A stretch of 64,000 bases of DNA from a virus (IMGVR_UViG_3300031772_000007:1-64000), one strand, 5' to 3'; positions 39,312-58,224 are shown, counted from the stretch's first letter. Program-made: numbers and translations. Notes: generated by a model from the sequence alone, not told the origin.

Positions 39312-39671
39312 TCAGAAGCTCCCTGTGAGCCGTCGGGCCGCTTCCCGGGCTCGCATCACCTGCTCGACGTGCGCCAGCACGTCCCGGAAGCGCTTGAAGC
39401 ACACGCCCACCCCGAGCGTGAGGGTGTTCCCCGGTGGCGAGCGGTCGTAGAAGACGTATTCCGTCCGCGTTCGGAACCGATGCCCCACCCACTCGTGCCG
39501 GGAGATGCGGTAGAAGAAGATCGCCTCCCCCGATGTCTCCCACGGGTTCTTCACCAGAAGAAAGGCGTTTCCCTTCTCGCGGGTGAGCGCCATCCCGTTC
39601 GACAGCCGGACGTGGCAGCCCACTCGGAGCTTGGAGGGAGCGCAACGAATCTCTTGGGTGAGGTTGCCCAT
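39312..39671 (-). CDS. small protein with EAxxRLTG tag
   Basis: ends REAARRLTGSF. Confidence 0.6.
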   Translation of the reverse strand: MGNLTQEIRCAPSKLRVGCHVRLSNGMALTREKGNAFLLVKNPWETSGEAIFFYRISRHEWVGHRFRTRTEYVFYDRSPPGNTLTLGVGVCFKRFRDVLAHVEQVMRAREAARRLTGSF

Positions 39672-40111
39672 CAGTAATACCCCACGGACTCAGGCTTCCC
39701 GCCCAGCCGCGTTACCGCATCCCACCGGGTGAACAGCGCGTTAGCTTGGTCCAGACACGCCTCCGTGCTCCCCCGATAGAGCACCTTCCTCACTCGGCGC
39801 TTCCGAACCCTGTACCAGTGCGACGAGAGCCACCCGTCATGCAGCTCCGCTTCGTGGTAGTGGTAGTGCCACCTCGGGCGAACCCAGAGATCAAGCCTGT
39901 ATCCCTCTGCCAAGACGACCCAAGTGTTCCTGATGTGGTTCGGCTCCACGGTGAGCCCGAGCTGCGTCCCCACAAAGCGCGTCGCCCCGCCCAACGCGCA
40001 GATTTCGAGAAAGCGCCTGCGCGCCGTGCTCGCTCCCTGCTCCTTGAGCAAGTCCTGCCGCGCCCGCTCGCGCATCACCTGCCACTTCCTGTGCCCCTGC
40101 CAGTCGCTCAC
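39671..40111 (-). CDS. small protein with DAxxRLGG tag
   Basis: GTGA coupling; WDAVTRLGG near the C-terminus. Confidence 0.6.
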   Translation of the reverse strand: MSDWQGHRKWQVMRERARQDLLKEQGASTARRRFLEICALGGATRFVGTQLGLTVEPNHIRNTWVVLAEGYRLDLWVRPRWHYHYHEAELHDGWLSSHWYRVRKRRVRKVLYRGSTEACLDQANALFTRWDAVTRLGGKPESVGYY

Positions 40112-40461
40112 ACCACGAACCTTGCCCCGAGGCGCTTCCGCTGTCCCGTCAGCCGTGCAACCGTCTCCGCAGCCTGAAGGCACTGCCTTCCCACCGCGAA
40201 CGCTTCCTTCACCGTCAGGCAGGACTGCTCCCACCTGACGTGGACGCTTGTGGCTGTCTTCTCGAACACCCGGACAAACCACAGGTGCGAAAGCAATGGC
40301 TCCAGCATCTTCTGCACAACCACGTGATGACGGTCGGTGGTGAGCCCCCGCCACCAAAGCACGTAGAACTCCTTGCAGTACGAAACCGTAACCTCCCCCC
40401 AGTAGCACTGGCGGTCGGGAATGCCCCGCCCGTGGACCGGATCCAGCGGAACTCGCTGCAT
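40108..40461 (-). CDS. small protein with ExxxRLTG tag
   Basis: TGATG coupling; AETVARLTG. Confidence 0.6.
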   Translation of the reverse strand: MQRVPLDPVHGRGIPDRQCYWGEVTVSYCKEFYVLWWRGLTTDRHHVVVQKMLEPLLSHLWFVRVFEKTATSVHVRWEQSCLTVKEAFAVGRQCLQAAETVARLTGQRKRLGARFVV

Positions 40462-40556
40462 CACGCCCCCAACCGAAGTGCCGCGTCCTCGATTGCCAGC
40501 CACACGAGCGCCACCGCCGCCCAGGCTGCCCAGAACGCTGCTTCGAGGTGGCTCAC
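40461..40556 (-). CDS. 31-aa membrane peptide with DAxxRLG tag (not in the ORF track)
   Basis: MSHLEAAFWAAWAAVALVWLAIEDAALRLGA; coupled to genes on both sides. Confidence 0.5.
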   Translation of the reverse strand: MSHLEAAFWAAWAAVALVWLAIEDAALRLGA

Positions 40557-40669
40557 GTTCCCCCCGGGGCTCCCACCTTCACGTCGTAGTCCTTCCTGTA
40601 GAAGTCAACCCACTTGACCCCGTTGGGGACGTACACTCCTCGTGCTCGCATGATGTCGTGCAGGCGCAT
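40553..40669 (-). CDS. 38-aa hypothetical peptide
   Basis: GGAGGAG RBS; MRLHDIMRARGVYVPNG... Confidence 0.45.
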   Translation of the reverse strand: MRLHDIMRARGVYVPNGVKWVDFYRKDYDVKVGAPGGT

Positions 40670-40717
40670 GTCTCTCTCCTCCCCAGAACCTTGCCCGCCG
40701 CGCCGCCGGTTGTCCCG

Positions 40718-42274
40718 CTACCGGCGCACCACGTCCAAGTGGGTCTGCACCGCCTTGAGCGCGCCGAGGCGCACGCCCTCCCGCGCGAACCAGCTCGCCA
40801 TGAGGCGGTCCCCGGTGTGCGCCCGCGGGTCATAGAACAGCATCTCGTTCACCCACTCGTAGAGCTGCGGGTGGAGGCTGCCGTCCGTGTTGGGGATGAT
40901 CCACTTCCGCCCCGCCATCTCCGCCGCGATGGACTCAATGCCGAATTCAGGGTGCGCCTTGTTCCTGCCCGTCGTGAACGCCCTGATCGGCACCGCGAAG
41001 TCCCGCCGTGCGAACTGGATGATGAAGTCCTGCGCCGCGTTGTTCTCCACGATGCAGATGGAGAAGTAGCGCCGATGGTGGTCGATGATCTTCAGGATGA
41101 TTTCCGGCCCAGCCCAACGTCCCGCCTCGACGTTCAACACCTCGCGGTCGCCGTTCGGGTGCGCCGCGATGGTGAACAGGCAGGTGAGGTCCGCGCCGTC
41201 CTTCTGTTGCACCGCCAGGTCCACCCCGGTGTACGTCTTGATGCCGTTCGGTAGCGCCTGGAGCCCGTGGCAGAGCCGCTTCCCATTCCCGCGCTCCAAG
41301 CACCAGCCCACCCACTCCTTGCGGAAGCGCGCTTCCTCATCGCTTCGGGCGACGCAGAGCATCGTGCGCGCGAACTCCAACGGCCCCCGCTCCTCCTTCA
41401 CCCGCTGGATGCGCTCCATCGGCCACCGCTCGGGCCAACGCGGCTGCCCGTCGTCCCCCAGCACCGGGTAGCGCATCGCCACCCACCCTGGGAGCTTCGC
41501 CAGCCGGTGGAGGGCGTCATCTGGGTGGAAGGCGGTCCCAATCACCAGCACCCGCGCCTTCGCCGTGAGACGGGAGAAGAGGGACGCCTGAATCCACTGG
41601 AAGCAGTCCTCCCGCATCTTGGCGGAGCGGGTGTTCTCCGTGTCGAGGAGGTCGTCCACGATGAGGATGTCGATGCGGCTTCCCAGCACGTTGCCGTGGA
41701 CGCCGAGGGTCTGCACGCTCGGGTCCTTGCTCTGGTAGGGGCGCGCAATCGTGATGGCACGGCTGGTCCACTGCTCCTTGCCAGGACGAAGCTCGGGGAA
41801 GACGGCGTGCAGCTCCGGGCTCGCCTCGATGTACCGCTTGATGGTGCGGAGGATCTTGTCCGCCTGCCCCGCAGTGTTACTGACAACGGCCACGCGGAGC
41901 GTCGGGTCCTGCCCAAGAAGCCAGAGCGTCCGGGCAATCGCCACCTGCCACGTCTTGCCCGACTCGACCGAACTCCAGATGATAAGCCGGTCGTGCAGCT
42001 CCGCCAGCTCGTGCCAGGCGACGTGGCAGGAGGCTTGGTCCAGCGGGAGCCCCGTCTTCTCGTCCCGCATGACCGCGGTGGAGAAGGCGTCGATGTCAAT
42101 GCGCGCCGCTTCGACCAGCTCCCGGTTCAGGAAGGCGTCCGCCTCGGGGTCGAACTCCAGCTCGTCGGGGATGGCGGTCACGGTCGGAGGCATTCCAGCA
42201 GGCCAGCCCTGCGCGTCAGCTCTTCCCAGCCCCCGTTTGAGGATGTTGTTCAGCCCCAGATGTTGGACCAGCAC
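40718..42274 (-). CDS. terL: terminase large subunit
   Basis: Walker A-like VESGKT, Walker B ILIVDD, VIGT coupling motif, RuvC-like TGVDLA and D.LMA; AAGGAGG before the GTG (alternative start 42193). Confidence 0.95.
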   Translation of the reverse strand: MLVQHLGLNNILKRGLGRADAQGWPAGMPPTVTAIPDELEFDPEADAFLNRELVEAARIDIDAFSTAVMRDEKTGLPLDQASCHVAWHELAELHDRLIIWSSVESGKTWQVAIARTLWLLGQDPTLRVAVVSNTAGQADKILRTIKRYIEASPELHAVFPELRPGKEQWTSRAITIARPYQSKDPSVQTLGVHGNVLGSRIDILIVDDLLDTENTRSAKMREDCFQWIQASLFSRLTAKARVLVIGTAFHPDDALHRLAKLPGWVAMRYPVLGDDGQPRWPERWPMERIQRVKEERGPLEFARTMLCVARSDEEARFRKEWVGWCLERGNGKRLCHGLQALPNGIKTYTGVDLAVQQKDGADLTCLFTIAAHPNGDREVLNVEAGRWAGPEIILKIIDHHRRYFSICIVENNAAQDFIIQFARRDFAVPIRAFTTGRNKAHPEFGIESIAAEMAGRKWIIPNTDGSLHPQLYEWVNEMLFYDPRAHTGDRLMASWFAREGVRLGALKAVQTHLDVVRR

Positions 42275-43187: not shown

Positions 43188-43310
43188 GCTCAATACCCCC
43201 TCGCAACCCCTTCCGAATAGCACGAGGAGGCTCGCGCGGTCCAGCCTCCCTCGGGCAATACCCGGCGTCCGGTGCTCCCCGTGACCTAATACCCGGTGAA
43301 CCCCCGCGGG

Positions 43311-43646
43311 TTAATCCTCCGTGTTCCCGCGAAGACGCCCCGCCGCTTCTACTGCGCGCAGGTACACTTCCACGCCTTCCGCTGCTTCTCGAAGGTTCCG
43401 GTAGGGCGGGAGGGGGGATTCACCCTGGTTGAAGACCTCCAACCCTGACTGAACGAGCCACCAGCGTCGGACCCTCCTCTCGTTCCTCCCGGGAGGGTAA
43501 TACTCCGCGTCCACCTGCGCCTTCCGGTAACGGGTGCCACTGCCCCAAGAACCCGGTTCCCCCTGGACACACACTGTAACGACCCACATGCCCCTGCCGC
43601 GCACGGTTAGGCTCAGCCCGGGGCGGATTCGTTGCCAGCACCTCAT
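43311..43646 (-). CDS. small protein with EAxxRL.G tag
   Basis: ends VEAAGRLRGNTED; paralog of 43646..43978. Confidence 0.65.
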   Translation of the reverse strand: MRCWQRIRPGLSLTVRGRGMWVVTVCVQGEPGSWGSGTRYRKAQVDAEYYPPGRNERRVRRWWLVQSGLEVFNQGESPLPPYRNLREAAEGVEVYLRAVEAAGRLRGNTED

Positions 43647-43978
43647 CAGTCTTCCGTGTCCCCCTGGAGCATCCGTGCTGCCGCTCGGGCTCTCAGGTGC
43701 TCCTCTCCCTTCGCTGCCGCTACCTCCACCGTGCTAAACACCCCGAAGGGGAGATCCTGCCGATGGGTTCCTCGAAAGGCTCCGTTCGAGACGTACTCCA
43801 TCAACCGCCACCCGTGGACCTTCTTGGTCGCCGTCACCTCGGGGACGATGTAGACCGCCTCGTGCCGAACGAAGCCTGTCTCCTCCATGCTCCCTGCGGT
43901 GCAGACCGTGAGGAACCAGAAACCGTTGGCCTGCCGGGTGAGGTTCACCCCGGGACGGATGCCCTCCCACTTACGCAT
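43646..43978 (-). CDS. small protein with tag variant
   Basis: ends RAAARMLQGDTED; N-terminus W..IRPG..LT shared with its neighbour. Confidence 0.65.
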   Translation of the reverse strand: MRKWEGIRPGVNLTRQANGFWFLTVCTAGSMEETGFVRHEAVYIVPEVTATKKVHGWRLMEYVSNGAFRGTHRQDLPFGVFSTVEVAAAKGEEHLRARAAARMLQGDTED

Positions 43979-44294
43979 CCCCGCCCCCGAGCCGCCGGAC
44001 GGCTTCCCTCACCCTCAACAGCTTCTTCGCGCCAGCCACGGCTTGCCGAAGGTAATGGTAGCGCGGTCGCGGGTCCACGAGCACCCGCAACCTCCAATCC
44101 AAGATGTCACCCCGCTCCCGTAGCTCATACACCTCGTAAACACGCCAGAACCTTAGTTCTTTGCGGAGAGTGCAGCTCAACCCGCCGCACCGGACTATCC
44201 ACTCCCGGGGCTCGTCCTCGTGCCCCGTCTTGGCCGGATGAGAAGCGACAAAGAAGCCCTCTCCTTGGTCCCTGGTGACACCGCGGGCCATCAC
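43971..44294 (-). CDS. small protein with EAxxRLGG tag
   Basis: ends REAVRRLGGGDA. Confidence 0.6.
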   Translation of the reverse strand: MMARGVTRDQGEGFFVASHPAKTGHEDEPREWIVRCGGLSCTLRKELRFWRVYEVYELRERGDILDWRLRVLVDPRPRYHYLRQAVAGAKKLLRVREAVRRLGGGDA

Positions 44295-44590
44295 CCTACC
44301 CCTTTCAGCCGGTCCACCGCATCCATCGCTCTCAGGGCAGCCTCCGCCGCCTGGAAGGCTTCCCGGACCGTGCCCGTGGCGATCCGCCGGATACCTGGCG
44401 GGAAGACGGCAATCCAGGTCCCACCCAGCGTCCGGTACACCTCGGCGTCCCGCGTGACGTAGGGCTCGAAGTCCGTATGTCTTTGTAGACCCACCCCTGT
44501 ACCCAAGGACAGCAGGTAGTCGGGTGCGCCAACCTCGCTGGAAGGCGCGTTGTCGATGACCAGCCCGGTCTTGGTGACGACGCGCCTCAT
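44291..44590 (-). CDS. small protein with DAxxRL.G tag
   Basis: ATGA coupling; ends MDAVDRLKGVG. Confidence 0.6.
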   Translation of the reverse strand: MRRVVTKTGLVIDNAPSSEVGAPDYLLSLGTGVGLQRHTDFEPYVTRDAEVYRTLGGTWIAVFPPGIRRIATGTVREAFQAAEAALRAMDAVDRLKGVG

Positions 44591-44949
44591 CGCCGCCGCT
44601 CCCCCGCCGTCAGCCGGTAGATGGCGTCCGTTCGCTCCGCCCACCGCAGCACCCCCTCCGGGTGCAAGAACTTCATGCTCCGAACCCGAAAGGCTCCCCA
44701 GCGCAGGTTCCGGCGGTCCTCGATGATGGCGATCCGCCCCATCGCCGCTATCACCACCCGGAAGACGTAGTCCGGTCGCGTTCCGACGGACTCCGGGGTG
44801 TCCCCTCCGAACCGGATACCCAACGCCTCCACCCGCCATCTCCCGCTTTGCTCTACGAGCTGGTCGAACAGGGAATGGTAGACCTCCTGCATCGCCGACA
44901 CGGGCATCACCTTCTCCCACCGAAGCCCGCGTTGCGCTTCCAGCCTCAC
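44587..44949 (-). CDS. small protein with DAxxRLT tag
   Basis: ends TDAIYRLTAGERRR. Confidence 0.55.
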   Translation of the reverse strand: MRLEAQRGLRWEKVMPVSAMQEVYHSLFDQLVEQSGRWRVEALGIRFGGDTPESVGTRPDYVFRVVIAAMGRIAIIEDRRNLRWGAFRVRSMKFLHPEGVLRWAERTDAIYRLTAGERRR

Positions 44950-45218
44950 ACTTTCCAACCCGCCTTCCTGATGTCGTCCCAACTGTAAACCGCGACCGAT
45001 TCGTGCCCGTCCGGCTCGTGTCCACCCACGCTGAGGAACCAGTTGCCGGTGAGCCGATGCACTGCGTCAACCAGCGAGGCGTACTCGGCGTCGTGATCTG
45101 CCGCCGTATGCGGGCTGTCGAACCGCCGCACCCGCCCGTGGTGTACCTGCTCGTCGAGCCATCCCCGGGGGAGCTTGTGCTTCCGCCAGAGCTGCCCGTA
45201 GGTCAGCCATTCGCCCAA
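44946..45218 (-). CDS. winged-HTH/excisionase-like small protein with internal DAxxRLTG tag
   Basis: TTG start after GGAGGG; WLTYGQLW.....RGWLD..V..G.VR; DAVHRLTG. Confidence 0.5.
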   Translation of the reverse strand: MGEWLTYGQLWRKHKLPRGWLDEQVHHGRVRRFDSPHTAADHDAEYASLVDAVHRLTGNWFLSVGGHEPDGHESVAVYSWDDIRKAGWKV

Positions 45219-45568
45219 GGGTCTGCCCTCCCTCCCAACCGCCGCTGCGCGTCCCAAATCCTGAAGGCTCGCACCGACCGCCGCTGTGCTTCCTCGAAGG
45301 TCGGGAACCAGTGCTGCACGCCCGACGGTCCATCCACCCGCCACCGCACCTCCGCGAAGGTCGGCGGGAAGATGCTCATCTCGACCGGGTGGTAGAAGGC
45401 AATCTTCTCCGGGTTGCCGGGGTCCAGGTAGTCCCCTCCGACCGGAATGCTCAACCGGACGATGAAGTACGCCTGCCCCGACTTCCCCTTGTCGTCGAGT
45501 GGCATCACCCTCTGAAGGTCGATGCCTCCCCCCAGCTTCCGCTCCCACACGACGACCGGGACAGTCAT
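45203..45568 (-). CDS. small protein with DAxxRLGG tag
   Basis: TGATG coupling; FPTFEEAQ...WDAQRRLGG. Confidence 0.6.
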   Translation of the reverse strand: MTVPVVVWERKLGGGIDLQRVMPLDDKGKSGQAYFIVRLSIPVGGDYLDPGNPEKIAFYHPVEMSIFPPTFAEVRWRVDGPSGVQHWFPTFEEAQRRSVRAFRIWDAQRRLGGRADPWANG

Positions 45569-45792: not shown

Positions 45793-45793
45793 C

Positions 45794-46084
45794 CTAAGCC
45801 CCCAACCTTTCCGCCGCTTCCTCTGCGCGGACGTGCTGCCGGACCAACCGAAAAACCGCGAGCGGGCTCGGGCAGTAGACGTGCGGGCGCACATCGACGT
45901 GCCGCCCGTCCCGGAACCCCGTCAGCAGCACGTCGTAGCCCGCCAAGTGCCGGGTGACGATGGCGCGAATCTTCCAGCTCCCGCGGAGCGCGAGCCAGCA
46001 CACCCCGTACTTCTGCGGCATCACCACGAGCCCGGCGACCTCGCGGACCTTCCGATTCCGCAGCCTGTCCCAAATCAACCGCAC
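45794..46084 (-). CDS. small protein with EAxxRLG tag
   Basis: ends EEAAERLGA. Confidence 0.6.
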   Translation of the reverse strand: MRLIWDRLRNRKVREVAGLVVMPQKYGVCWLALRGSWKIRAIVTRHLAGYDVLLTGFRDGRHVDVRPHVYCPSPLAVFRLVRQHVRAEEAAERLGA

Positions 46085-46410
46085 GCCCCGAGCCTCCTCA
46101 CCGCGTCCCACAGGGTAAGAGCCCTCTCCGCCGCTGCCTGCGCTTCCTCCTCCTGCTCGTGCAAGGTCGTCGCCCGAAAGGGATGAAACCCGCTGTAGTG
46201 GCACACCCAATCTCCACCCGGCTCTCCCTTTGTCGCCCGCTCCTCGACCCAGGCATGAGGACGCTGTTCTATCGGAACGCCGTCGTAGGTCCGCAGTTCC
46301 ACCAGAACCATCCGGCGTTGATTGGGCTCCATGCCCACCCGGCTCTCACCTCGGCGAAAGAGCCCTTCCTCCCCCCGAGGAGCCGTCGTTCTTGTCCTGC
46401 GCGGCTTCAC
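46075..46410 (-). CDS. small protein with DAxxRLG tag
   Basis: ends LWDAVRRLGACG (alternative start 46332). Confidence 0.55.
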   Translation of the reverse strand: MKPRRTRTTAPRGEEGLFRRGESRVGMEPNQRRMVLVELRTYDGVPIEQRPHAWVEERATKGEPGGDWVCHYSGFHPFRATTLHEQEEEAQAAAERALTLWDAVRRLGACG

Positions 46411-46652
46411 GCCTTCTGCCACCGTGCCTTCTTCAGCACGCCCTTCTTCCGCCGCGGAATCATGTTCATGTAGAGCATGTCCTTCTCGTCGAAGCAGCCG
46501 GAGTGGGCCACCATCGCCCCAAGGGCGACGGACAGCGCCTCCTCGTGTTGCTCCTGCTCGAACGTCTGCGCCTTCCGCGACACGCACTGCATCAGCTCCA
46601 GCTTGCGCCGGAGGTTGTCGAATGCCCCTCGATACGTCAGCTTGCTTCTCAT
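46407..46652 (-). CDS. hypothetical protein
   Basis: 81 aa; ATGA coupling. Confidence 0.5.
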   Translation of the reverse strand: MRSKLTYRGAFDNLRRKLELMQCVSRKAQTFEQEQHEEALSVALGAMVAHSGCFDEKDMLYMNMIPRRKKGVLKKARWQKA

Positions 46653-48148
46653 GGCCCCTCCAAGTCGAACGCCTCGAACGTCTCCTTCAGCTTGCCCTTC
46701 TTCAGCGGACGGTACTGCTCCACGCGGCAGAACGAGGACGGCCCTACCTTCCCCGCCACCGCGTCCACGTACATCGAGAAGGCTCCGTCCTCGACAGTGT
46801 AGAACCACTTCGGAACGTGCGCTGCCTTCAGCGCCGACTCGCTCTCCCGAGCCAGCGCGGTGTCGATGCCGATGCTACGCGCCCGCGGATAGCCGCCGTC
46901 CAGCCGGTCCCCGGCGTCGAGCGCCAACACCTGCTTCACCCACTCGTCGTAGGAGTACGGCTGGAACGTCTCCGCCCGCCCCTGCCGCTTGAAGCCCAAC
47001 AGCTTCACCTGCACCTTGCACCGCTCCGCTTCGGTGAGGATGTCCCCCAGCACCTCCAACGGCGTCGAGCCCATGACGTACTGCGCCGTAAGCCGCCCCT
47101 CTAAAAGCCAATCCTGCCCCTTCTCGTGATAGCCCGCCGCATGGGAGAGAGCTGTGACCTCGTCCGGGCTCGCAACCGTGTACGCGCAGGAGGAGTAGTA
47201 CGCCATCGCCACTTTCATGTCCCCCGAGCCGAGATAGTGGATGTCCCGAGTGGTGAAGTTGGCGACCATGCCGTGCTCCCGGCACTCCCTCCCGATGTCG
47301 ATGAACTTCGGATGCGAGGTGGGCTCCCCGCCACCCACCGCGATCTCCAGCACGCCCACCCCCGCCAGCTCCTTGATGATGCCCTTGAGCTTCGGGAACG
47401 ATGCCGTCTCGCCGGTCGGGGTGCTCCCCTGGTAGCAGTAGGCGCACCCGTTCATGCAGCGGTCGGTGACCTTCAGGTCCACCAGCTCCGGCACCGATGC
47501 TCGCCACACCTTCGGGTGGCAGCCCTCGTCGGCGAACGAGAGGCGCGTCCGTGCGCCCGTCTCCCGGTTGAACAGGACCCAGTAGCCGTACTTAGGGTCC
47601 TTCCGCGCCACGATGTTCACCCCCCGTTGGAAGTCGCTGCCGAAGTCCACCGGAACCCTCTCAACACCCCCCGCCTCAAGGGTTGGGTGCGTGTCCCCGT
47701 TGTCGTTCCCCCCGAGAACGGCCACCCTGTCGCTCAACACGAAGTCTCGCAGGTCCCGCGCGAACTCCAGATTGGGCTCCTTCTGCGTGCCCACCTGCGC
47801 CGGTAGCTTGTCCATCAGGCTTTGGTGGTCCACGTAGCCCTCGGGCTCCGGCCCGTCCGCCTTCTGCTTCCACTCCAGCACGCCCGGCAGCAAGTCCTCG
47901 ACGAACCGCCGCGCCATTTCCCTGTCCGGGTGGAACTGCACCCTGAACACCTCCCAGAACTGGAGCGCCACGTACTTCGCCTTCTCCTCGCGCGACGTGA
48001 GCGTGAACATCTCCCACCCAAACTCGGGGCTGCACCACGCCTCCTCGCGCGCTTCGCCGGGGCGCAGGAAGATGAGGGTGTGATCCGAGCTGCTGTTGTT
48101 CGCAAAGCCCAGCCTGACGTTATGAATCCTCGCGGTCCTCAAGCCCAC
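46649..48148 (-). CDS. radical SAM protein with N-terminal F.NNSSS.H domain
   Basis: CMNGCAYC motif, GGGEPT, NFTT; N-terminal RLGFANNSSSDH. Confidence 0.85.
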   Translation of the reverse strand: MGLRTARIHNVRLGFANNSSSDHTLIFLRPGEAREEAWCSPEFGWEMFTLTSREEKAKYVALQFWEVFRVQFHPDREMARRFVEDLLPGVLEWKQKADGPEPEGYVDHQSLMDKLPAQVGTQKEPNLEFARDLRDFVLSDRVAVLGGNDNGDTHPTLEAGGVERVPVDFGSDFQRGVNIVARKDPKYGYWVLFNRETGARTRLSFADEGCHPKVWRASVPELVDLKVTDRCMNGCAYCYQGSTPTGETASFPKLKGIIKELAGVGVLEIAVGGGEPTSHPKFIDIGRECREHGMVANFTTRDIHYLGSGDMKVAMAYYSSCAYTVASPDEVTALSHAAGYHEKGQDWLLEGRLTAQYVMGSTPLEVLGDILTEAERCKVQVKLLGFKRQGRAETFQPYSYDEWVKQVLALDAGDRLDGGYPRARSIGIDTALARESESALKAAHVPKWFYTVEDGAFSMYVDAVAGKVGPSSFCRVEQYRPLKKGKLKETFEAFDLEGP

Positions 48149-48449
48149 CTCCCAGCCGGTAGGTGGATTCCCACCGGGCCATGATTTCCTCTGCGTCGTA
48201 GAGCGCCTGCACCAACGTCGGACGCCAGCGCCCCGTCTCCAGTTGGGACGCCCTCTGGTACTGGAGCATCCCCTGTGGCGTCCGTCGCGTCTCCTGCATC
48301 TCCACCGAGGCGAACCAGCCCCCGGCTCCCTTCCGCAGCCATCCCGTCATGCACCTTTCCTCGGGAGCCAACCTGACCACCCTCACGTAGCTGCCACGGG
48401 ATATGCTCCATCCCTTCTCGGTGAGTCCCGTGCCTTCCTCGTCCGTCAC
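48120..48449 (-). CDS. small protein with ExxxRLGG tag
   Basis: GTGA coupling; WESTYRLGG. Confidence 0.6.
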   Translation of the reverse strand: MTDEEGTGLTEKGWSISRGSYVRVVRLAPEERCMTGWLRKGAGGWFASVEMQETRRTPQGMLQYQRASQLETGRWRPTLVQALYDAEEIMARWESTYRLGGGLEDREDS

Positions 48450-48979
48450 GGGCCACTCCCGAACGTCTCGTAGCGCCGTGGCGCGCAGATGATGCAGCCC
48501 CGCGGCGTCAGTTGCTCGGTGGGGACCTCCGCGCCACAGTTGGGGCACCGGGACAGTTCCGCGTACAGCTTCACCTTCCCCGCTCCCGAGATGTTGACCC
48601 CCGACTGCTCGACCACCCGCTGCGCCGGAGATTCCTCCCCGGTGAGCCGCGCCGCCGCGTCGTTCACGATGAACTGCCCCACGTCGTAGTACGTCTCGCC
48701 GGGGCTCACCTTCGTCCCATCAGCCAACTCCGCCAAGACGATGCTGTTGTCCGGCTTGAACATCCACGCCTTCGAGCCGCCCGCCGGGAACTGCGCGATG
48801 TGCTTCAGCAGGCTCTCCCCCTGCACCCACCGGACCTCGCCACTTCGCACCAGCACGTCGAGCCCGCCCCGCGTCATCTTCAGGTCCCGCCAGATGTCCG
48901 TGTACGTGCGCCACTGGCGGTCGGCGTCCCCCGGCTGGAGGACGTACTCGCTCGACCCGACGTAGCCCCAGCGGTTCAT
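48446..48979 (-). CDS. HTH-like protein with internal DAxxRLTG tag and C-terminal zinc ribbon
   Basis: TY.DIW.....RGGLD.LV..G.VR (paralog of 44946..45218); NDAAARLTG; CPNCG...CIIC. Confidence 0.6.
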   Translation of the reverse strand: MNRWGYVGSSEYVLQPGDADRQWRTYTDIWRDLKMTRGGLDVLVRSGEVRWVQGESLLKHIAQFPAGGSKAWMFKPDNSIVLAELADGTKVSPGETYYDVGQFIVNDAAARLTGEESPAQRVVEQSGVNISGAGKVKLYAELSRCPNCGAEVPTEQLTPRGCIICAPRRYETFGSGP

Positions 48980-49212
48980 AGCTCCAGAGTTACCTCCAGC
49001 ACGTCGTACAACCTGCTCCCGAGTGCCCTGATGGTTTCCAAGTCGCCGTCCACCACGAGAAGCGCCTGCGCTCGTATCGGCTTCCCCGCCAGGACGCGCT
49101 CCGCCTTCATCGCCATGATCGCCTGCGCGCACTGCGTCAGAGATTCCGCAAGGCACTCGCCCGTCTCATCCACCACCGTTGCAACCGGCGTTGCCTTCGC
49201 TCGGAGCTTCAT
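48976..49212 (-). CDS. hypothetical protein
   Basis: 78 aa; ATGA coupling. Confidence 0.5.
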   Translation of the reverse strand: MKLRAKATPVATVVDETGECLAESLTQCAQAIMAMKAERVLAGKPIRAQALLVVDGDLETIRALGSRLYDVLEVTLEL

Positions 49213-49706
49213 AGGTGCCTCGGCTTCGGCGGTCGGGGCTCCCTCCCCTGAAGACGGTCCACCGATTCCCGAGAGGCCAACTCCATGCGCTTCGCCTCGT
49301 AGGCGTCGGCCAGCACCTTGCGACAGACCGGGTCCGCTACCCTGTAGACGTGCTCCCCCGCGGGGAACAGCTTGCCGAAGCGCCAAAGCTGCCCGTACTC
49401 CTCCACGAAGCCCGACCCGGCGAAGCGCTTCGTCTGCTCGAAGATGCCGAGCTGTAGGAGAGTCCGCTGGATGCGCCATCGGGCGGATCTGCCCTCCCGC
49501 GCCCCCGTCACCGGGATGAAGAACTCGTCAGGCTCCACCTTCTCGTCCACGAGGTTCACCGTCAGCTTGTCCAGCGCCTCCCCCGCGTCGGTGGTGACGT
49601 AGAGCGCCCCGTTCCCGTTGCTGTAACGCCCCCCGTGAAGAACACAGGGATCCTCATCGAGATAGAAGCGGAACCCGTCCGCCGCCTTGAAGGGGTCCAC
49701 CCTCAC
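49209..49706 (-). CDS. DUF4313-like protein with ExxxRL.G tag
   Basis: Y.NGN.AL....GE....LTVNL...FFI...L..GI.....SGF pattern; RESVDRLQG. Confidence 0.55.
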   Translation of the reverse strand: MRVDPFKAADGFRFYLDEDPCVLHGGRYSNGNGALYVTTDAGEALDKLTVNLVDEKVEPDEFFIPVTGAREGRSARWRIQRTLLQLGIFEQTKRFAGSGFVEEYGQLWRFGKLFPAGEHVYRVADPVCRKVLADAYEAKRMELASRESVDRLQGREPRPPKPRHL

Positions 49707-50197: not shown

Positions 50198-50213
50198 CTG
50201 CCCCGTCTCCGGG

Positions 50214-50432
50214 TCAACCGTCAAAGCCAAGCTGACGCGCCGCTTCGAGCGCAACCGCTTCTTCAACGTCCGCCGCTTCGTAACAGGCATAGAATTTCCC
50301 ATCGCGTTTCCTCGCCGCGCAGATAGCTGCCCCGCCCCGCCGCCGGGCAAGAGCGCCCAGCGCCAGGGCCAACGTCTCCTCGTCGATGTCGTACATGATG
50401 GAGGCTTCCAAGAGGGTGAGCAGCTTCTTCAC
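50214..50432 (-). CDS. small HTH-like protein with EAxxQLG tag variant
   Basis: MKKLLTLLEASIMYDI...LEAARQLGFDG. Confidence 0.5.
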   Translation of the reverse strand: MKKLLTLLEASIMYDIDEETLALALGALARRRGGAAICAARKRDGKFYACYEAADVEEAVALEAARQLGFDG

Positions 50433-50457
50433 CTGGAAACCTTGCCCGGACGCAGGC

Positions 50458-52507: not shown

Positions 52508-53196
52508 TGCCCCTCCAGGAACTTCGCCAGAGCCCCGCCGTCGATGGCGTCCGCCCTCAGAGTCCCGAAGCGGGTGCCCAGCCTGAACTTCCCCAGCACC
52601 GCGTCCGCCTCCTCCCGGGTGGCGAACTGCGCCTTCAACACCTTCGGCTGGTTCGCGGCGACAGCCTCCTCCGCCATCTTCGCCACGAGATCGCTCGGGT
52701 CCTTCTCCGGTGCCTCCGAGAGCTGTTGATTCGTGGCGTCGATGGTCCCCGCCGACAGCACCTCGATCTCGTCCCCCGAGAAGCCTGTTACCCCCTTGAA
52801 CCACTCCCCGCCCGCCGTGTTGTCGTTGAGCCACGCCGAGACGTAGTTCGACAGCGCGCTGTAATCCCACTCCGCGCCGATCTGGTTCAGGGCCAGCACG
52901 AGCGCCCGTGCCTTCCGGTCGTCCGGCAGGTCCACCACCACCGCCTCGATCTCCGTCGCCCCCGAGTCCTTCAGCACCCCGTAGCGATGGTGCCCGTTCA
53001 GAATCTCGTAGCGCCCCTTCGTCCGGGGGCTCGGTCGGACGACGATGGGCTCCACCACCCCCATCTCGGTGAGAGACTGCTTCAGCGTCTCCGTCATCCG
53101 GTCCGTCATCTTGCGCGGGTTCCCGAACGCGAACGGGTCCACCGCGCCGATGGCGATGCGCTTCAACGCCTTCAGCTTCGACTCGATGTTGCTCAT
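52504..53196 (-). CDS. ParB/Srx-like nuclease-domain protein (paralog 1)
   Basis: NPR.M...L..S..EMG.VEPI.VR.....YEILNGHHR. Confidence 0.85.
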   Translation of the reverse strand: MSNIESKLKALKRIAIGAVDPFAFGNPRKMTDRMTETLKQSLTEMGVVEPIVVRPSPRTKGRYEILNGHHRYGVLKDSGATEIEAVVVDLPDDRKARALVLALNQIGAEWDYSALSNYVSAWLNDNTAGGEWFKGVTGFSGDEIEVLSAGTIDATNQQLSEAPEKDPSDLVAKMAEEAVAANQPKVLKAQFATREEADAVLGKFRLGTRFGTLRADAIDGGALAKFLEGQ

Positions 53197-53735
53197 GTCC
53201 CCTCCTGCCTCAGAAACTCCCTGAGCGACCGCTCCAGAACCTCGGGCACTCGCCGGGCATCCAGCTCGACCCTATCCCCTTCCGGGAAGGTTTCCCAGAA
53301 ACGGCGAGACTTCGTCTCCCGCCCCTTCACCCACGAGGCGTTCTGCTTGCTCCCACGGGTGTCCCTGCGCGCCTGCGCCTCCTCCGGTGGGAGCGTCAAC
53401 AGCGCGCACACCAGCCGGATGTTCGGGGCGTAGGGCAGCGAACGGAAGAAGCTCACCGGGAGCGCGTTGCTGAACCTGTCCCCGTCGAACAGCGTCAGCT
53501 CCGCGCGCATCGCCAGGTGCGTCGTCCAGAAGTTCAGCGCCTCCGCCGCCCCGTTGTAGGGCACGGTGTCCGCCCCATCGAACGGCCCGCCCGCGTAGTG
53601 CCCCGCGGCAACGATGCGCTGCCCGATGGTCCACTTCGGCTTCGGGTTGAGGCGACTGAGCGGTTCGAGGAGCCTCCGCGCCAGCGTCGTCTTGCCCACC
53701 CCCGGCGTCCCCACCAACCAAAGTACGGTCTTCAC
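53193..53735 (-). CDS. P-loop kinase, putative 5-hydroxymethyluracil DNA kinase
   Basis: GTPGVGKTT; G.Y....FDG.D; FDGDRF; R..RGS.Q..SW.KGR.TK; adjacent to aGPT-Pplase2. Confidence 0.8.
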   Translation of the reverse strand: MKTVLWLVGTPGVGKTTLARRLLEPLSRLNPKPKWTIGQRIVAAGHYAGGPFDGADTVPYNGAAEALNFWTTHLAMRAELTLFDGDRFSNALPVSFFRSLPYAPNIRLVCALLTLPPEEAQARRDTRGSKQNASWVKGRETKSRRFWETFPEGDRVELDARRVPEVLERSLREFLRQEGT

Positions 53736-54862
53736 TTCTGCGCCCTCCTCACCTCATCGTTGAAGTCGTTGGCAAAGCAGCCCCACTCCTTGTCCATCAT
53801 GATCACCTGTCCGGTCAGCCGGTAGTGGTTCATCTTGCGAGGACAGAGCCCCGGGTCCTTGGGGTTGTCCTCCAGCCGCAGGTGCTCCGGCAGGCATTCC
53901 TTCCGCGCGTCCCAGAACAGATGCAACCGTTCCCCCCATGCCTCCTCGGTCTTCTTCAGCCGGAGGTAGAGCATGTCGTTGTAGACGTTCGGGTAGCGTC
54001 GGTTGACCCGGTGCCAGCCCTTGTACGTACAGAGGGTGCTCTCCATCGTGAAGTAGCCCACGTCCCGGTAGAAGCTCTCCCCCGCCGCGCGGACCTTCAT
54101 CTCCTCCAACAGCTCCGCCGCCTCCTTCTCCAGCCAGCGCAGGACCGCGGGGCTGTAGGTGCCGTCAAAGCTCGTATTGTCGTCGTGCCAGTCCAGGTCG
54201 TCCCGGCCCAACACCTTGCAGAGCCCATTCCGGTGACTCTTGCTGCCCTGCATGTCGTCGAGAAAGAGCTGATCGCAGTCGATCCTCACCCCGTTGATGC
54301 GTAGGTACTCCGCGTAGCTGAACGAACTCAACCGCCCGAAGTAGACGAAGAAGGTGTTGATCGCCTGCCAGAGCTGTCGGAAGTTGGTGCGCTCGTCCGC
54401 CGGGGTCAGCCGATTGAAGAACTCCTCTTGCGAGCGCCCGCCCAACAGCGTGACGTAGTTCTGAACGCAGGTGAGGAACTTGGTCTTAAAGTACCGCCGG
54501 TCGGTGTCGAACTCCAACCGCGTGTAGTTCTCCGCGAACCACCGCTTCATCCGGTCGAAGTCCACCCCCACGAGAGGGAATTCCCGGAAGATGAGCCAGC
54601 TCGTCGGCGGGTGCTGCGTGTTCCCGTTGATGAAGGCGAACCACAGCCGTTGCTCCGTGCTCCACCCCAGCCGGTCTGCCAGGTAGGGAAGAACGTAATA
54701 CACCCCCCCTGGATGAGAACGGTAGCGAAGGTGAAACTCCCAGAACCGAAGGAAGACCTCCCGGCGGTAGCGGGACTCACGGAAGTCCGTGCCCACGCGG
54801 AGCGCCGTCTCCTCTGTCTGCCTGTGGAGGGCGCAGTAGCGCCCCGGTTCCGCCGTCTTCAT
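53732..54862 (-). CDS. aGPT-Pplase2 (amino acid:DNA transferase, thymidine hypermodification)
   Basis: YRREVFLRF..FHL.YRSHPG.VY, FDTDRRY, FGRLS.FSY.EYL, GSKSHRNGL, ESTLCTYK, RRYPNVY.DM. Confidence 0.85.
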   Translation of the reverse strand: MKTAEPGRYCALHRQTEETALRVGTDFRESRYRREVFLRFWEFHLRYRSHPGGVYYVLPYLADRLGWSTEQRLWFAFINGNTQHPPTSWLIFREFPLVGVDFDRMKRWFAENYTRLEFDTDRRYFKTKFLTCVQNYVTLLGGRSQEEFFNRLTPADERTNFRQLWQAINTFFVYFGRLSSFSYAEYLRINGVRIDCDQLFLDDMQGSKSHRNGLCKVLGRDDLDWHDDNTSFDGTYSPAVLRWLEKEAAELLEEMKVRAAGESFYRDVGYFTMESTLCTYKGWHRVNRRYPNVYNDMLYLRLKKTEEAWGERLHLFWDARKECLPEHLRLEDNPKDPGLCPRKMNHYRLTGQVIMMDKEWGCFANDFNDEVRRAQK

Positions 54863-55902
54863 GGTTCCCCCAAGGCTCCTCGCATCGCGGCGAGCGTCGG
54901 GCGCGACCCGACAATCCAGAACAGCGCCTTCCCGCTCCCCCAGAAGTGGACGAACTCCTTGGCGTGCTTCCGCAGGTACGTCATCACCTTGCCCTCGTAG
55001 GTGGGGTGGAAGTCGATGCCGCCGTAGGTGAAGGGCATCTCGTCCTGATAGCTGGCGAAGTGCGTCGCATGCAAGTCGTAGTGAACCAGCCGGTAGGGAG
55101 CGCGCTTCGTCGGTTGGAAGCTCGCCGCCTGATCCGGGTCGTTCTTGTAGTCCCGGTTGAACAACGCCCGAATCTGGATGCCCGAGAACTGCTCGATGGC
55201 GCGAAGCCGGTCCTCAATCCAGACCAGCTTCGTCGGCCCTACTCCAAACAGGACGACCTCCCGAAGCCGCGGGGGCAGCCTGCGCGCGATGCCGTACAGC
55301 ACCGAGACACAGCTATTGCAGCTCCCCGCGGGCATGTAGATGGCCTCCACGTCATCCGGGATGTTGAGAACCTGCTCGCTTCCGAGTCGGTGGAAGGCGT
55401 CAATCTCCGCAGGGTCGTCGTCCACCGTGATGCCGTACTTCAAGACGTAGTGCCCGGGGTGCTCCTTAGCCAGCTCCGCCACCGCCCGTTGCAGCGCCGG
55501 ATTGTAGGCCACCGGGTTGTACCTAAAGCGGGCTCCGAGCGCCCGAGCGATGGCGACGTTCTCATGCTTCCCCGCCGCCTTTTCCGTCGTCGCACCGATG
55601 ACCAACAGCGTCTCCAACCCAAAGTGCCGAGCAACCGCGGTGCCCATGCAGAGTTGCGGGCTCTTGACGCTCGCCCCGGAGAGCAACCCCTTCGCCCCCG
55701 CCGCCGCTGCCCGGCTCACAAGCCAGATGCACTGGCGGAGCTTCGCCCCGTTGATGCCTCCGTACCCGAGAGGCGCGAAGCGGTCCTCCCGCTTGAACCG
55801 GATCGCCCCCATTTCCTCCACCGGGGTCCGGGTAAGCAGGTGCTTCTCCCACCGCGACTGCTCCCGGTCCAAGCTCAACGTGTCGAAGACGGACCCTCTC
55901 AC
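54859..55902 (-). CDS. PLP-dependent enzyme (fold type II), putative decarboxylase for the modified base
   Basis: TPVE..FKRED.F.P.G.GGING.KLRQ; SPQ; PAGS.NS; FHPTYEGK. Confidence 0.85.
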   Translation of the reverse strand: MRGSVFDTLSLDREQSRWEKHLLTRTPVEEMGAIRFKREDRFAPLGYGGINGAKLRQCIWLVSRAAAAGAKGLLSGASVKSPQLCMGTAVARHFGLETLLVIGATTEKAAGKHENVAIARALGARFRYNPVAYNPALQRAVAELAKEHPGHYVLKYGITVDDDPAEIDAFHRLGSEQVLNIPDDVEAIYMPAGSCNSCVSVLYGIARRLPPRLREVVLFGVGPTKLVWIEDRLRAIEQFSGIQIRALFNRDYKNDPDQAASFQPTKRAPYRLVHYDLHATHFASYQDEMPFTYGGIDFHPTYEGKVMTYLRKHAKEFVHFWGSGKALFWIVGSRPTLAAMRGALGEP

Positions 55903-56171
55903 TTTCGCAGCTCCGCGTCGCGCACTCCACGAACCCCCAAGGACAGCAACGCCCTCCACACCTTCATCCTGCCCCACCGCTCCTCGTTGGTGATGGCGTA
56001 CCAGGCACCCCCACGGGGACCGAGGGGCTTGTAGGTGATCGCCCCGATGGAGAGCCCCTTCTTGATCATCGTGTACGAGAGACAGGGAACGTCATACCAC
56101 TCCTGCGCGGGGCGGTAGTTCCCCACCCCGAACTGCTTCAGAATGGCGTCGAAGTCGGGCTCGTACTCCAT
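55899..56171 (-). CDS. hypothetical protein
   Basis: 90 aa; coupled to genes on both sides. Confidence 0.55.
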   Translation of the reverse strand: MEYEPDFDAILKQFGVGNYRPAQEWYDVPCLSYTMIKKGLSIGAITYKPLGPRGGAWYAITNEERWGRMKVWRALLSLGVRGVRDAELRK

Positions 56172-57787
56172 CAGGCCACTTCCACCCGTCCTTCAGCCAC
56201 CTTCCACCGCTGCACGCACGGAACCCGCGCCGCCAGCTCCTCGTTGTGCGTGATGATGACGACCGCTCGTTCCCGGGCCAGATCGTCGAGCACACCCACA
56301 ACCGCCTCGATTCCAGCCGAGTCGAGCCCGTCCAGAATTTCGTCAAGGAACAGGGTTCCCCGCCCCGCGAAGGCAAGAAGTAGGGCCAGGTCTATCCTCC
56401 TCCGCTCCCCCGCAGAAGTGGCCTTGTAGCCGTAGCCACCGCCAGCTCCCTGCACCTGCAAACTGATGGCGTCCGACACCCCGCCAGTCTTCTTCTCGGA
56501 GTACGGCTTCAGCTCCAGCTTGAGCCCCTTCCCCGCGAGCCGCGGGAGCCAGGCGTTCGCCGCCGCCTCCAGCCCCCCAAGCAGCTTCGCCAGGATGCCA
56601 GCCCGCGCCCCGCGGAGCCCCAACACCATCTCCGCCGCCTTCAACACCTCAACCTCGTGCTCCTGCTTCGCCCGCGCTGCTTCCGCCTTGGCGATGTTGT
56701 CGGCGCAGACCTCCTCCGCCTTAGCCGCCAGCACCCGTACCTTCTCGGTGTTCGCCCTGAGAGCCGCCGAACGTTCGATGTTCCCCAGCTCCGCGTCGAG
56801 CGCCGTGGCCTTCTCCCGGAGCTTGCGGAGGGCTTCCTGTACGTCCCGCGCCTCGTCCCGGGTGTCCGACACCGCCTCGTTCGCCTGCGCCTGCTCTGCG
56901 CGGGTGTCGGTCTGAATCTTCTGGATCTGCTCCTTCAGCCCCTTCCGCAGTTCCTCCGGCACAGCCTGCCCGCAAGAGTCGCAGATGCCTGACTCCCCCA
57001 GCCGGTTGAGCCGCCGGGTCAACGCCGCCAGCTCCCGCTCCGCGCCGCCCGTGTTGACGCTGTGCTTGGCGATCTCGTCTTGGAGCGACGCCAGCTCGGT
57101 GTCCCCCTTCCTGATGTGCTCCCGTAGGTGGTCCCGCCGCTGCTTCAGCGCCCCCACCGCTTCCTCGGTCCCCATCGGCATCCCCGCGAGCGCCTGCTTC
57201 GCATCTTGCTGCCGCTGCCGCGCGTGCTCGATCTCCACCTCCGCTATGCGCTTTCGGTTCGCCGCGTCACCCAACTCCCGCTCCGCGGTGTGGAGCTGCG
57301 CCCGGCATTTCTCCAGCGCGGCATCAAAGCGACCAAGCCCCAACATCGACTCCAAGAACAGCTTGCGCTCCTTGTCGGTGGCCTGCGTGAAGTGCGCCGC
57401 GTCCGCCGAGCTGAAGACGTGAGTGCGCCTCCAAATCTCGAACGAGCCGATGATCTCCTCCAGCGCCTCCTGCGCCTTGGTCGTCGTCTCGTAGTCGCGC
57501 CCCTTCCCTTCGTAGGTGAAGGTCAGCGCGGTCTTGGCTCCCTTGCGCTCCCGCCGAGCCACCAGAGCCCCCGCGGTGAACTCCGCAAAGCCCTTCAGCG
57601 AGTCGATGGCGAACGGGAGGACGCCCCGAAGCGTCTCACCCCATCCTGGGTACGCCACCCCCTCGATGATGCTCGACTTGCCCGAGCCATTCGGCCCCAC
57701 AACCAAAACAACTCCTCTCTTGGGAAAGGCCAGCTCCGTCTTCTCGTGCGTCGTGAAATTCACCAGCTTGAGTGTCCCGAGATCCAT
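56171..57787 (-). CDS. sbcC: SbcC/Rad50-like ATPase (gp46-like)
   Basis: GPNGSGKSS, coiled coil with CDSC zinc hook, SAGERRR signature, LFLDE, ITH. Confidence 0.93.
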   Translation of the reverse strand: MDLGTLKLVNFTTHEKTELAFPKRGVVLVVGPNGSGKSSIIEGVAYPGWGETLRGVLPFAIDSLKGFAEFTAGALVARRERKGAKTALTFTYEGKGRDYETTTKAQEALEEIIGSFEIWRRTHVFSSADAAHFTQATDKERKLFLESMLGLGRFDAALEKCRAQLHTAERELGDAANRKRIAEVEIEHARQRQQDAKQALAGMPMGTEEAVGALKQRRDHLREHIRKGDTELASLQDEIAKHSVNTGGAERELAALTRRLNRLGESGICDSCGQAVPEELRKGLKEQIQKIQTDTRAEQAQANEAVSDTRDEARDVQEALRKLREKATALDAELGNIERSAALRANTEKVRVLAAKAEEVCADNIAKAEAARAKQEHEVEVLKAAEMVLGLRGARAGILAKLLGGLEAAANAWLPRLAGKGLKLELKPYSEKKTGGVSDAISLQVQGAGGGYGYKATSAGERRRIDLALLLAFAGRGTLFLDEILDGLDSAGIEAVVGVLDDLARERAVVIITHNEELAARVPCVQRWKVAEGRVEVA

Positions 57788-58000
57788 CTACTCGCCCTCC
57801 CCGAGCATCTGCTCCAGCGCCAACGCAACCTCCGCATGGGCATCCGCCCCTGTGTATTCAACAGAGCGCAATTGCTTTACTGCGTCCCAAGCTGTATCCA
57901 GCATCTCCGGCAAATGCCGCCTGACATTTCGATTCGCCGCTGCGAACGCCGCCGCCCAGACCATCTGCTCGCCCCTCGACATCTTCTTCCATGCACTCAT
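57788..58000 (-). CDS. hypothetical protein
   Basis: MSAWKKMSRGEQMVWAAAFAA...; ATGA coupling. Confidence 0.5.
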   Translation of the reverse strand: MSAWKKMSRGEQMVWAAAFAAANRNVRRHLPEMLDTAWDAVKQLRSVEYTGADAHAEVALALEQMLGEGE

Positions 58001-58224
58001 GGCCGGTCCCACCCCACTCGCTTGCTCGCTGCCGCCGGGTTGTCCGCGGGACCTCCCAGCCGTTCCGTCGCATCCATCGCCTGCTCCTTCTCGCGCATCC
58101 GCTTCAGGTAGTAGTCCCCGACCCCGCCTTGAAAGAGGGGATCTCCCATCGGCGCGAACCTCCAGCGCCGAAGCAGCTCCTCGTAGGAAGCGTTATCGAT
58201 CCACTGCTTCGTCGCGGCATCCAT
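57997..58224 (-). CDS. small protein with DAxxRLGG tag
   Basis: WIDNASYEELLRRWRFAP.GDP.FQG..G.YY domain plus MDATERLGG. Confidence 0.65.
   Translation of the reverse strand: MDAATKQWIDNASYEELLRRWRFAPMGDPLFQGGVGDYYLKRMREKEQAMDATERLGGPADNPAAASKRVGWDRP

Follow-up and report, generated by a model that had tools for sequence, protein, structure and literature searches.

A short helix-ending motif recurs in small orphan proteins and replication enzymes of an uncultured phage clade and may act in docking

Introduction

Why do some eighteen small proteins of one phage carry nearly the same eight residues, mostly close to their C-termini, on bodies that are not detectably related? The question is raised by IMGVR_UViG_3300031772_000007:1-64000 (hereafter the window, 64,000 nucleotides [nt] in length), which is the first 64 kb of the 93,825-bp IMG/VR record of an uncultured phage (working label G000) with a guanine-cytosine (GC) content of 66% and nearly all of its genes on the minus strand. 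A first-pass annotation of positions 39,312 to 58,224 had listed 18 peptides of the type [D/E]AxxRL[G/T]G and proposed that they form a portable C-terminal tag, by which many accessory proteins would be recruited to one partner. As described below, the motif is strongly enriched in this phage, is conserved as amino acids, recurs in several relatives and has been inserted independently into conserved enzymes; a role as a recognition motif is possible and is tentatively put forward here.

Enrichment and carriers of the motif

The strict pattern, defined as [DE][AST]xxRLxG (consensus form [D/E]-A-(A/V)-x-R-L-(G/x)-G), was counted in proteins from our own crude gene calls (143 genes). It occurs 21 times in the whole phage, compared with 0.3 +/- 0.6 times in residue shuffles, and 11 strict copies fall within the last 30 residues of proteins, compared with 0.1 in shuffles. 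Control patterns were not enriched, as shown by the reversed pattern (1 versus 0.4) and by LR.G (15 versus 14.6). A natural control, which we judge better than shuffles, consisted of 54 related phage loci or genomes with GC contents of up to 72%; these hold 7 strict copies in 254,147 amino acids (aa), that is, 0.28 per 10,000 aa as against 7.2 in this phage (about 25-fold), and at this background rate about 0.8 copies would be expected where 21 are seen. An equally low background was found in a further 63 loci around homologs of a vWA-metallopeptidase. All strict copies lie at 39-78 kb and none in the virion or lysis arms, which gives 0 in 15,664 aa for the two arms and 21 in 13,658 aa for the region 38.7-81.1 kb (Fisher p 1e-7), and the 30 copies of a looser pattern all fall within 39.3-84.3 kb. 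The large enzymes hold 4 strict copies in 1,804 aa, where arithmetic at the natural background rate predicts about 0.05. The enrichment was therefore borne out against both shuffled and virion-gene controls.

All 18 peptides originally listed were found on the minus strand in the genes named, the strict pattern fitting 13 of the 18 and five being degenerate. The degenerate copies are DAALRLGA in gene 40461 (genes are named by their lower coordinate), AAARMLQG in 43646, DAIYRLTA in 44587, EAAERLGA/DAVRRLGA with a G-A ending in 45794/46075, and EAARQLGF in 50214. The motif was said to stand at or near the C-terminus, which holds for most of the listed carriers but not for 44946, 48446 and 57997, where it lies 32, 63 and 17 aa from the end, respectively. 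One copy in the window had been missed, DAGDRLDG in a radical-SAM protein. The carriers are as follows.

39312..39671, minus strand: 119-aa carrier, EAARRLTG at 39321-39344, 2 aa before the stop; no Pfam or PHROG match
39671..40111, minus strand: 146-aa carrier, DAVTRLGG at 39698-39721, 8 aa before the stop; homologs and an AlphaFold2 model
40108..40461, minus strand: 117-aa carrier, ETVARLTG at 40144-40167, 11 aa before the stop
40461..40556, minus strand: putative 31-aa open reading frame (ORF), hydrophobic helix and DAALRLGA (40464-40487) abutting the stop; weak coding score (8.5); overlaps both neighbours (GTGA, TGATG)
43311..43646, minus strand: 111-aa carrier, EAAGRLRG at 43326-43349; paralog of 43646-43978 (phmmer E 8e-12)
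43646..43978, minus strand: 110-aa carrier, degenerate AAARMLQG followed by DTED and the stop
43971..44291, minus strand: 106-aa carrier, EAVRRLGG at 43983-44006
44291..44590, minus strand: 99-aa carrier, DAVDRLKG at 44300-44323
44587..44910, minus strand: 107-aa carrier, DAIYRLTA-G at 44605-44628
44946..45218, minus strand: 90-aa protein, mid-protein DAVHRLTG (45045-45068) with 32 aa after it; paralog of the N-terminal part of 48446-48979 (E 1.6e-5)
45203..45568, minus strand: 121-aa carrier, W-DAQRRLGG at 45230-45253; one relative in G001
45794..46084, minus strand: 96-aa carrier, EAAERLGA at 45797-45820, abutting the stop
46075..46410, minus strand: 111-aa carrier, W-DAVRRLGA at 46084-46107; weak paralogy to 45203
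46649..48142, minus strand: 497-aa radical-SAM protein, internal DAGDRLDG at 46895-46918; Pfam Radical_SAM 7e-10
48120..48449, minus strand: 109-aa carrier, W-ESTYRLGG at 48147-48170
48446..48979, minus strand: 177-aa protein, internal DAAARLTG at 48638-48661 ahead of a zinc-ribbon-like tail
49209..49706, minus strand: 165-aa carrier, ESVDRLQG at 49245-49268, 11 aa before the stop
50214..50405, minus strand: small ORF (uncertain gene call), degenerate EAARQLGF at 50223-50246
57997..58224, minus strand: 75-aa carrier, DATERLGG at 58051-58074, 17 aa before the stop

Selection on the amino acids

The synonymous codon variation first described among the copies was seen again, and the relatives likewise vary freely at synonymous positions. 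Copies that share an amino acid share its codon in 38% of such cases, where the codon usage of the genome predicts 30-43%, and the most alike pair of 24-mers is identical at 21 of 24 nt with six of the eight residues in common. A downstream start is found no more than 15 nt from the end of the motif in 7 of 30 copies; the other 23 are far from any start. In a minority of copies, such as those of 48120, 43971, 44291 and 40461, the Gly codons also serve as a ribosome-binding site, and in 48120 the GGAGG of the Gly-Gly codons stands 4-5 nt ahead of where the downstream gene starts. The motif is also present in relatives with GC contents of 56-70%. With codon identity at background and 7 of 30 copies near starts, the signal is selected as amino acids and not as DNA, in agreement with the first-pass claim that it is no DNA repeat, and it is not a Shine-Dalgarno by-product.

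The Leu codon CTA was considered as a DNA signal in relative G003 and rejected, CTA being the commonest Leu codon of that genome. The sole codon bias seen is minor and concerns Glu at motif position 1, which is encoded by GAA in 8 of 13 copies versus 16% of Glu codons genome-wide.

Gain of the motif in conserved enzymes and its recurrence in related phages

Alignment with orthologs shows that the motif has been gained repeatedly, by small insertions or substitutions, in conserved and unrelated enzymes. The clearest case is the superfamily 2 (SF2) helicase, in which EAVARLTG forms an exact 8-residue insert just ahead of the LRDYQ motif and is missing from 10 of 10 orthologs, the closest at 59% identity. 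The DnaB-like helicase holds a DAVSRLGG insert together with a further copy in a lineage-specific C-terminal extension, and the primase has a copy specific to G000 in the variable linker following its zinc finger. In the relatives, a portal-like protein of G001 contains an insert beginning DAATRLQG, and the terminases of G002, G003 and G006 share an insert of about 23 aa (DAVARLGG, ASVTRLGG and EELLEMGG, respectively) between their ATPase and nuclease parts, which the terminases of G000 and G001 lack. Some matches are ancestral helices that merely resemble the motif, namely AAMARLRG in the DnaB linker helix, the G003 16109 protein and the G005 PolA. The inserts in the two helicases and in the terminases of relatives substantiate the portability that had been proposed; the accompanying statement that the motif is absent from replication proteins is correct within the window, but beyond 64 kb it occurs internally in the primase, the DnaB-like helicase and the SF2 helicase.

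The motif recurs in several relatives, defined as terminase relatives in IMG/VR, in the form [DE]-[AS]-x-x-R-L-G-G.

G001: 68 kb, 59% GC; 15 strict copies on the coding strand in six frames, 9 of them in called genes
G002: 109 kb, 70% GC; 11 strict copies
G003: 112 kb, 56% GC; 9 strict copies
G005: 118 kb, 62% GC; 13 strict copies
G004, G006 and G007: 2-4 strict copies each
G009, G010 and G011 (more distant): 0-1 strict copies each

Over eight genomes, the motif stands at the C-terminus in 30 copies, at the N-terminus in 26 and internally in 16, and the notion of a specifically C-terminal tag thus did not hold clade-wide. Some proteins of the relatives terminate exactly in RLGG. Tandem arrays of carriers have the motif at the C-terminus in G000 and G001 and at the N-terminus in G002 and G006; the G002 array, at 93-109 kb, comprises about 20 small proteins with L-P-x7-R-L-G close to the N-terminus, followed by a beta-rich body, and may be a circular permutant of the C-terminal type of the window.

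The clade is strongly mosaic. G000 has its virion module in common with G001, G004 and G007 and its replication module with G002-G006, whose virion genes are unrelated, and the terminase alone is common to all genomes.

The motif as the end of an amphipathic helix

Structurally, the motif closes an amphipathic helix. The 18 residues ahead of it are, in 61 copies, hydrophobic every 3-4 residues (a 3.5-residue period), with stripe positions at -15, -12/-11, -8, -5/-4, -2/-1, +1/+2 and +5, and the D/E and R of the motif lie one helical turn apart. The small carriers of G000 and G001 align over their last 24 residues as [WY]-x-x-[ST]-x-x-E-A ... [DE]-A-x-x-R-L-x-G. Two carriers, 45203 and 39671, were modelled with AlphaFold2. 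The model of 45203, built from a family alignment, has a predicted local distance difference test score (pLDDT) of 56 and consists of beta strands and a predicted helix at 91-110 (pLDDT about 80) ending at R110. That of 39671, built with 13 outside homologs, reaches a pLDDT of 83 and a predicted template modelling score of 0.74, and shows three helices at the N-terminus, a sheet of five strands and a helix spanning 116-135 that ends at R135, followed by L136-G137-G138 and a poorly ordered tail. No significant match of the 39671 model to a solved structure was found (best Foldseek E 0.96; best VIA Z 5.6), and a likeness to E2 enzymes was rejected as it consisted of scattered weak rows without significance.

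39671 is the sole small carrier with detectable outside homologs, 13 representatives in 1.84 billion proteins at 31-51% identity. The stretch W-[DE]-A-x-x-R-L-G-G-x-P-E is the most conserved in this family, with R135 and L136 invariant, and the tail after RLGG (window 39671-39697; homologs P0002-P0013) is conserved too, as x-P-E-x-x-x-[YFL]-[YL]-stop. A word-based homolog search with the 39671 protein returned only itself, the 45203 protein produced no lead in the ESM Atlas, and Pfam and PHROGs yielded nothing usable on 20 small carriers and ten 45-aa C-terminal pieces. Among the carriers, phmmer links only 43311 with 43646, 44946 with 48446 and, weakly, 45203 with 46075. The carriers are therefore not detectably related, as had been suggested when unrelated bodies were described, but the labels 'DUF4313-like' and 'HTH-like' attached to some of them were not supported, Pfam and PHROGs being blank on the small carriers. 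The enzymes that carry the motif belong to clearly unrelated families.

A 100-aa motif carrier at 74888-75190 of the record shares a segment with a 470-aa virion-arm protein (22937-24349; phmmer 7e-7), whose orthologs in seven relatives also hold this segment. By sequence, the carrier looks like a duplicated small piece of a structural gene that is now located in the replication region.

Possible functions of the motif

Repeated gain in unrelated proteins, purifying selection on the amino acids alone and restriction to non-virion genes are together the signature of a short recognition motif, and it is tentatively suggested that the motif is such a docking element with one common reader, a reading that is possible, and the likeliest of those considered, but to be taken with reserve. 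One partner, of the phage or of the host, would handle many early and replication-stage proteins through the motif, and the fast-diverging small beta-plus-helix proteins would be variable bodies on a constant handle. Such an arrangement would amount to a targeting or docking system.

Several observations weigh against this proposal. The conserved A and L of the motif prolong the hydrophobic stripe of the helix, and the helix closed by the motif reaches a pLDDT of about 94 in the 39671 model and is therefore predicted to be part of the fold and not a free peptide. About a dozen small carriers share a beta body and the 24-residue helix and may be one diverged family, so that part of the sharing of the motif may be by descent. 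In addition, a partner was not found by phylogenetic profiling or at the vWA-metallopeptidase loci. All complete genomes rich in the motif encode both a MoxR ATPase and the vWA-metallopeptidase, and the motif-poor ones encode neither; the replication module as a whole is distributed likewise, and partner profiling is confounded because this module is co-inherited, while G007, the sole informative genome for the co-occurrence, is incomplete at the relevant contig end. Homologous motif-bearing genes lie between the MoxR and vWA-metallopeptidase genes in G005 (67535-68335) and G003 (39968-40702), their mutual alignment beginning exactly at the motif, and in G006 a motif-bearing gene (105542-105976) directly follows the MoxR gene. 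The motif is not enriched in the 63 phage loci with vWA-metallopeptidase homologs, and the vWA-metallopeptidase is therefore not sufficient as a reader. The MoxR/vWA pair as reader is a weak lead.

The most durable alternative, which we nevertheless consider somewhat unlikely, is that the motif is the signature of one hyper-divergent, expanded family, in which the helix and RLGG form a cap anchoring the helix to the beta sheet, the copies in enzymes being convergent and no reader existing; the N- and C-terminal versions would then be circular permutations arising from shifted gene boundaries in the tandem arrays. The common 24-residue helix with its 3.5-residue hydrophobic period in 61 copies, the alignable C-terminal halves of the small carriers, the confident modelling of the helix as a part of the predicted fold and the arrays with the motif at either end (C-terminal in G000 and G001, N-terminal in G002 and G006) all agree with this. 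Sequence searches, however, link only three pairs of carriers, and a family signature leaves unexplained both the confinement to non-virion genes and the inserts in the SF2 helicase (exactly 8 aa), the DnaB-like helicase, the terminase and the portal-like protein. A generic cap would also have no need of an Arg of surface type and a Gly-Gly that stay invariant at 31-51% identity.

A processing site or degron is less probable still. It is conceivable that R-L-x-G(-G) is cut, or marked for degradation, by a protease of the phage or host, so that tails are trimmed and copies in linkers split domains. Viral protease/deubiquitinases cut at [K/R]-L-x-G-[G/A/S], as in KLNGA and RLLGS of turnip yellow mosaic virus, RLIGG of equine arteritis virus and LXGG of coronaviruses, and ubiquitin itself ends in RLRGG (PMC5695851). 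Besides the likeness to these sites, the tails that follow the motif are short (0-17 aa) and variable, several proteins of the relatives end exactly in RLGG, the motif occurs in enzyme linkers, and both a MoxR ATPase and a putative metallopeptidase-vWA protein are encoded by the phage; in G003 and G005 these two genes flank a motif-bearing gene, and in G006 one adjoins the MoxR gene. No JAB, E1-like, C39, OTU or C48 domain was found, however, in six-frame searches of the phage, and cuts in linkers would probably inactivate the primase, the helicases and the terminase. The conserved positions reach 8-24 residues upstream as a helix, unlike the extended tail of ubiquitin, the tail of the 39671 family is itself conserved, and the vWA-peptidase loci of other phages lack the motif.

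An elaboration of the docking proposal, unlikely enough to be considered a long shot, is an adaptor system, in which the variable beta bodies would bind targets of the host, of its defences or of the phage, and the constant helix would plug the carriers and the tagged replication enzymes into one remodelling or degrading machine of the phage. The MoxR AAA+ ATPase with the vWA-metallopeptidase would be the candidate machine, and the whole would correspond, in a phage, to viral F-box-type adaptor arrays.

It is very improbable that the motif is a module junction, a short conserved stretch that once aided recombination among mosaic phages and whose protein form is secondary. The motif does occur at gene ends, gene starts and domain linkers, and the clade is strongly mosaic, its replication module being paired with different virion modules, but the DNA likeness is no greater than the amino acids require (best pair 21/24 nt; codon identity at background), no flanking repeats are present and the helicase insert of 8 aa lies away from any module boundary.

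Finally, a by-product of GC-rich codons and of the G-rich ribosome-binding sites of overlapping downstream genes is scarcely credible and, as a general explanation, refuted: A, R, L and G are abundant at 66% GC and 7 of 30 copies have their last Gly codon no more than 15 nt from a downstream start, but shuffles give 0.3 copies, related phages with up to 72% GC have 0-2 matches, the motif is found in relatives with GC contents of 56-59% and commonly stands at N-termini or internally, and the artefact reading, which the first-pass annotation had itself named as its refutation, fails because an overlap with ribosome-binding sites cannot explain [DE]-A-x-x-R-L or the 23 of 30 copies far from starts.

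Genomic context

The layout of the record up to 81 kb and beyond was established from gene calls and Pfam.

1-38 kb: virion genes
40718..42274, minus strand: large terminase (Pfam Terminase_6N), motif-free in this phage
Either side of the terminase: small orphan genes
46-56 kb: thymidine-modification cluster, with two radical-SAM proteins, an amino-acid:DNA transferase and a pyridoxal phosphate (PLP) enzyme
Further genes up to 81 kb: SbcC-like, SbcD-like, RecA, gp32-like and thymidylate-kinase-like proteins and PolA (intein and HNH domain); primase, DnaB-like helicase, SF2 helicase, ParB-like proteins and a sigma-70-like factor; DUF2201 metallopeptidase-vWA protein and MoxR-type AAA ATPase
Past 81 kb: amidase

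The genes of the cluster, which is of the thymidine hypermodification type, lie at 46649-48142, 50458-51897, 53732-54862, 54859-55902 and 58888-59526, and comprise two radical-SAM proteins, an amino-acid:DNA transferase (PF18724, 9e-22), a PLP-dependent enzyme and a thymidylate-kinase-like protein; two ParB_N paralogs (51860-53196) are found inside the cluster. The family A DNA polymerase (1,188 aa, 63407 to 66973 of the record) has an N-terminal UDG-like domain and an intein with an HNH endonuclease. Nucleotide searches with 43.0-50.5 kb gave no DNA-level match among GenBank phages, and a host search through terminase relatives in bacterial genomes returned a single weak match, to Planctomycetota.

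Comparison with known systems

No description of the motif was found in the literature on RLGG, DUF2201 and phage short linear motifs. In behaviour, its nearest known counterparts are clamp- and polymerase-docking tails, in sequence RLRGG-type sites and in organisation viral adaptor arrays, and the motif has the defining features of none of these.

Docking tails include the gp45-binding C-terminal tails of T4, the bacterial QL[SD]LF peptide, and the acidic tails of T7 gp2.5 and gp4. Like the phage motif, they place one short peptide on many unrelated DNA-handling proteins and small regulators, at termini or in linkers, are absent from virion proteins and are easily gained and lost. The phage motif differs from them in its sequence, its helical nature and Gly-Gly end, and in being just as frequent at N-termini and in arrays of small uncharacterised proteins; it is distinct from QL[SD]LF, and no beta-clamp domain was found in the phage. 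With the end of ubiquitin and the sites of viral protease/deubiquitinases it shares an R-L-x-G-(G/A) core, exact RLGG ends in relatives and variable tails, whereas a long amphipathic helix instead of an extended strand precedes it, and the bodies are not predicted to be beta-grasp folds in two models, one of which is of low confidence. Six-frame searches of the phage for E1-like, JAB, OTU and Ulp enzymes gave no match to PF00899, PF14464, PF02338 or PF02902; the host may supply such an enzyme.

Among viral adaptor arrays, the ankyrin/PRANC (F-box-like) proteins of poxviruses operate in the setting of eukaryotic ubiquitin ligases. Like the carriers, they form arrays of paralogs that diverge fast and combine a variable body with a short, constant element at one end, which in their case docks on one machine; the phage motif has no sequence relation to it, and the constant element of the phage is also found in core enzymes. 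The double-glycine leaders of bacteriocins (LSxxELxxIxGG) are exclusively N-terminal and are cut by a C39 peptidase-transporter. They resemble the motif in having an amphipathic helix that ends in Gly-Gly and an acidic residue 8 positions upstream, but the hydrophobic spacing of the motif is -3, -7 versus -4, -7, -12, its copies in this phage are mostly C-terminal or internal, and no PF03412 match was found in the phage.

The analogy first drawn was with the capsid-targeting sequence of T4 internal proteins, an N-terminal element through which proteins enter the prohead and which the prohead protease cuts. Both are portable short peptides on unrelated accessory proteins of one phage, but the motif is variable in position, its carriers are replication and early-region proteins, and nothing ties the carriers to the virion. 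This analogy received no support, as no partner, localisation or virion link was found.

Significance

Replisomes and proteolytic machines choose their clients through shared docking peptides, few of which are, to our knowledge, known in phages. Across a clade of uncultured phages of 90-120 kb, an 8-residue element marks about one fifth of the non-virion genes, and the arrays of its carriers are made up of orphan proteins whose evolution is too fast for homology searches to follow. Should the motif be only a structural cap, it would still define a large new family of small proteins able to mimic a 'tag'. If a reader exists, one peptide would give a handle on dozens of uncharacterised proteins and would provide a clear case of short-motif evolution in bacterial viruses.

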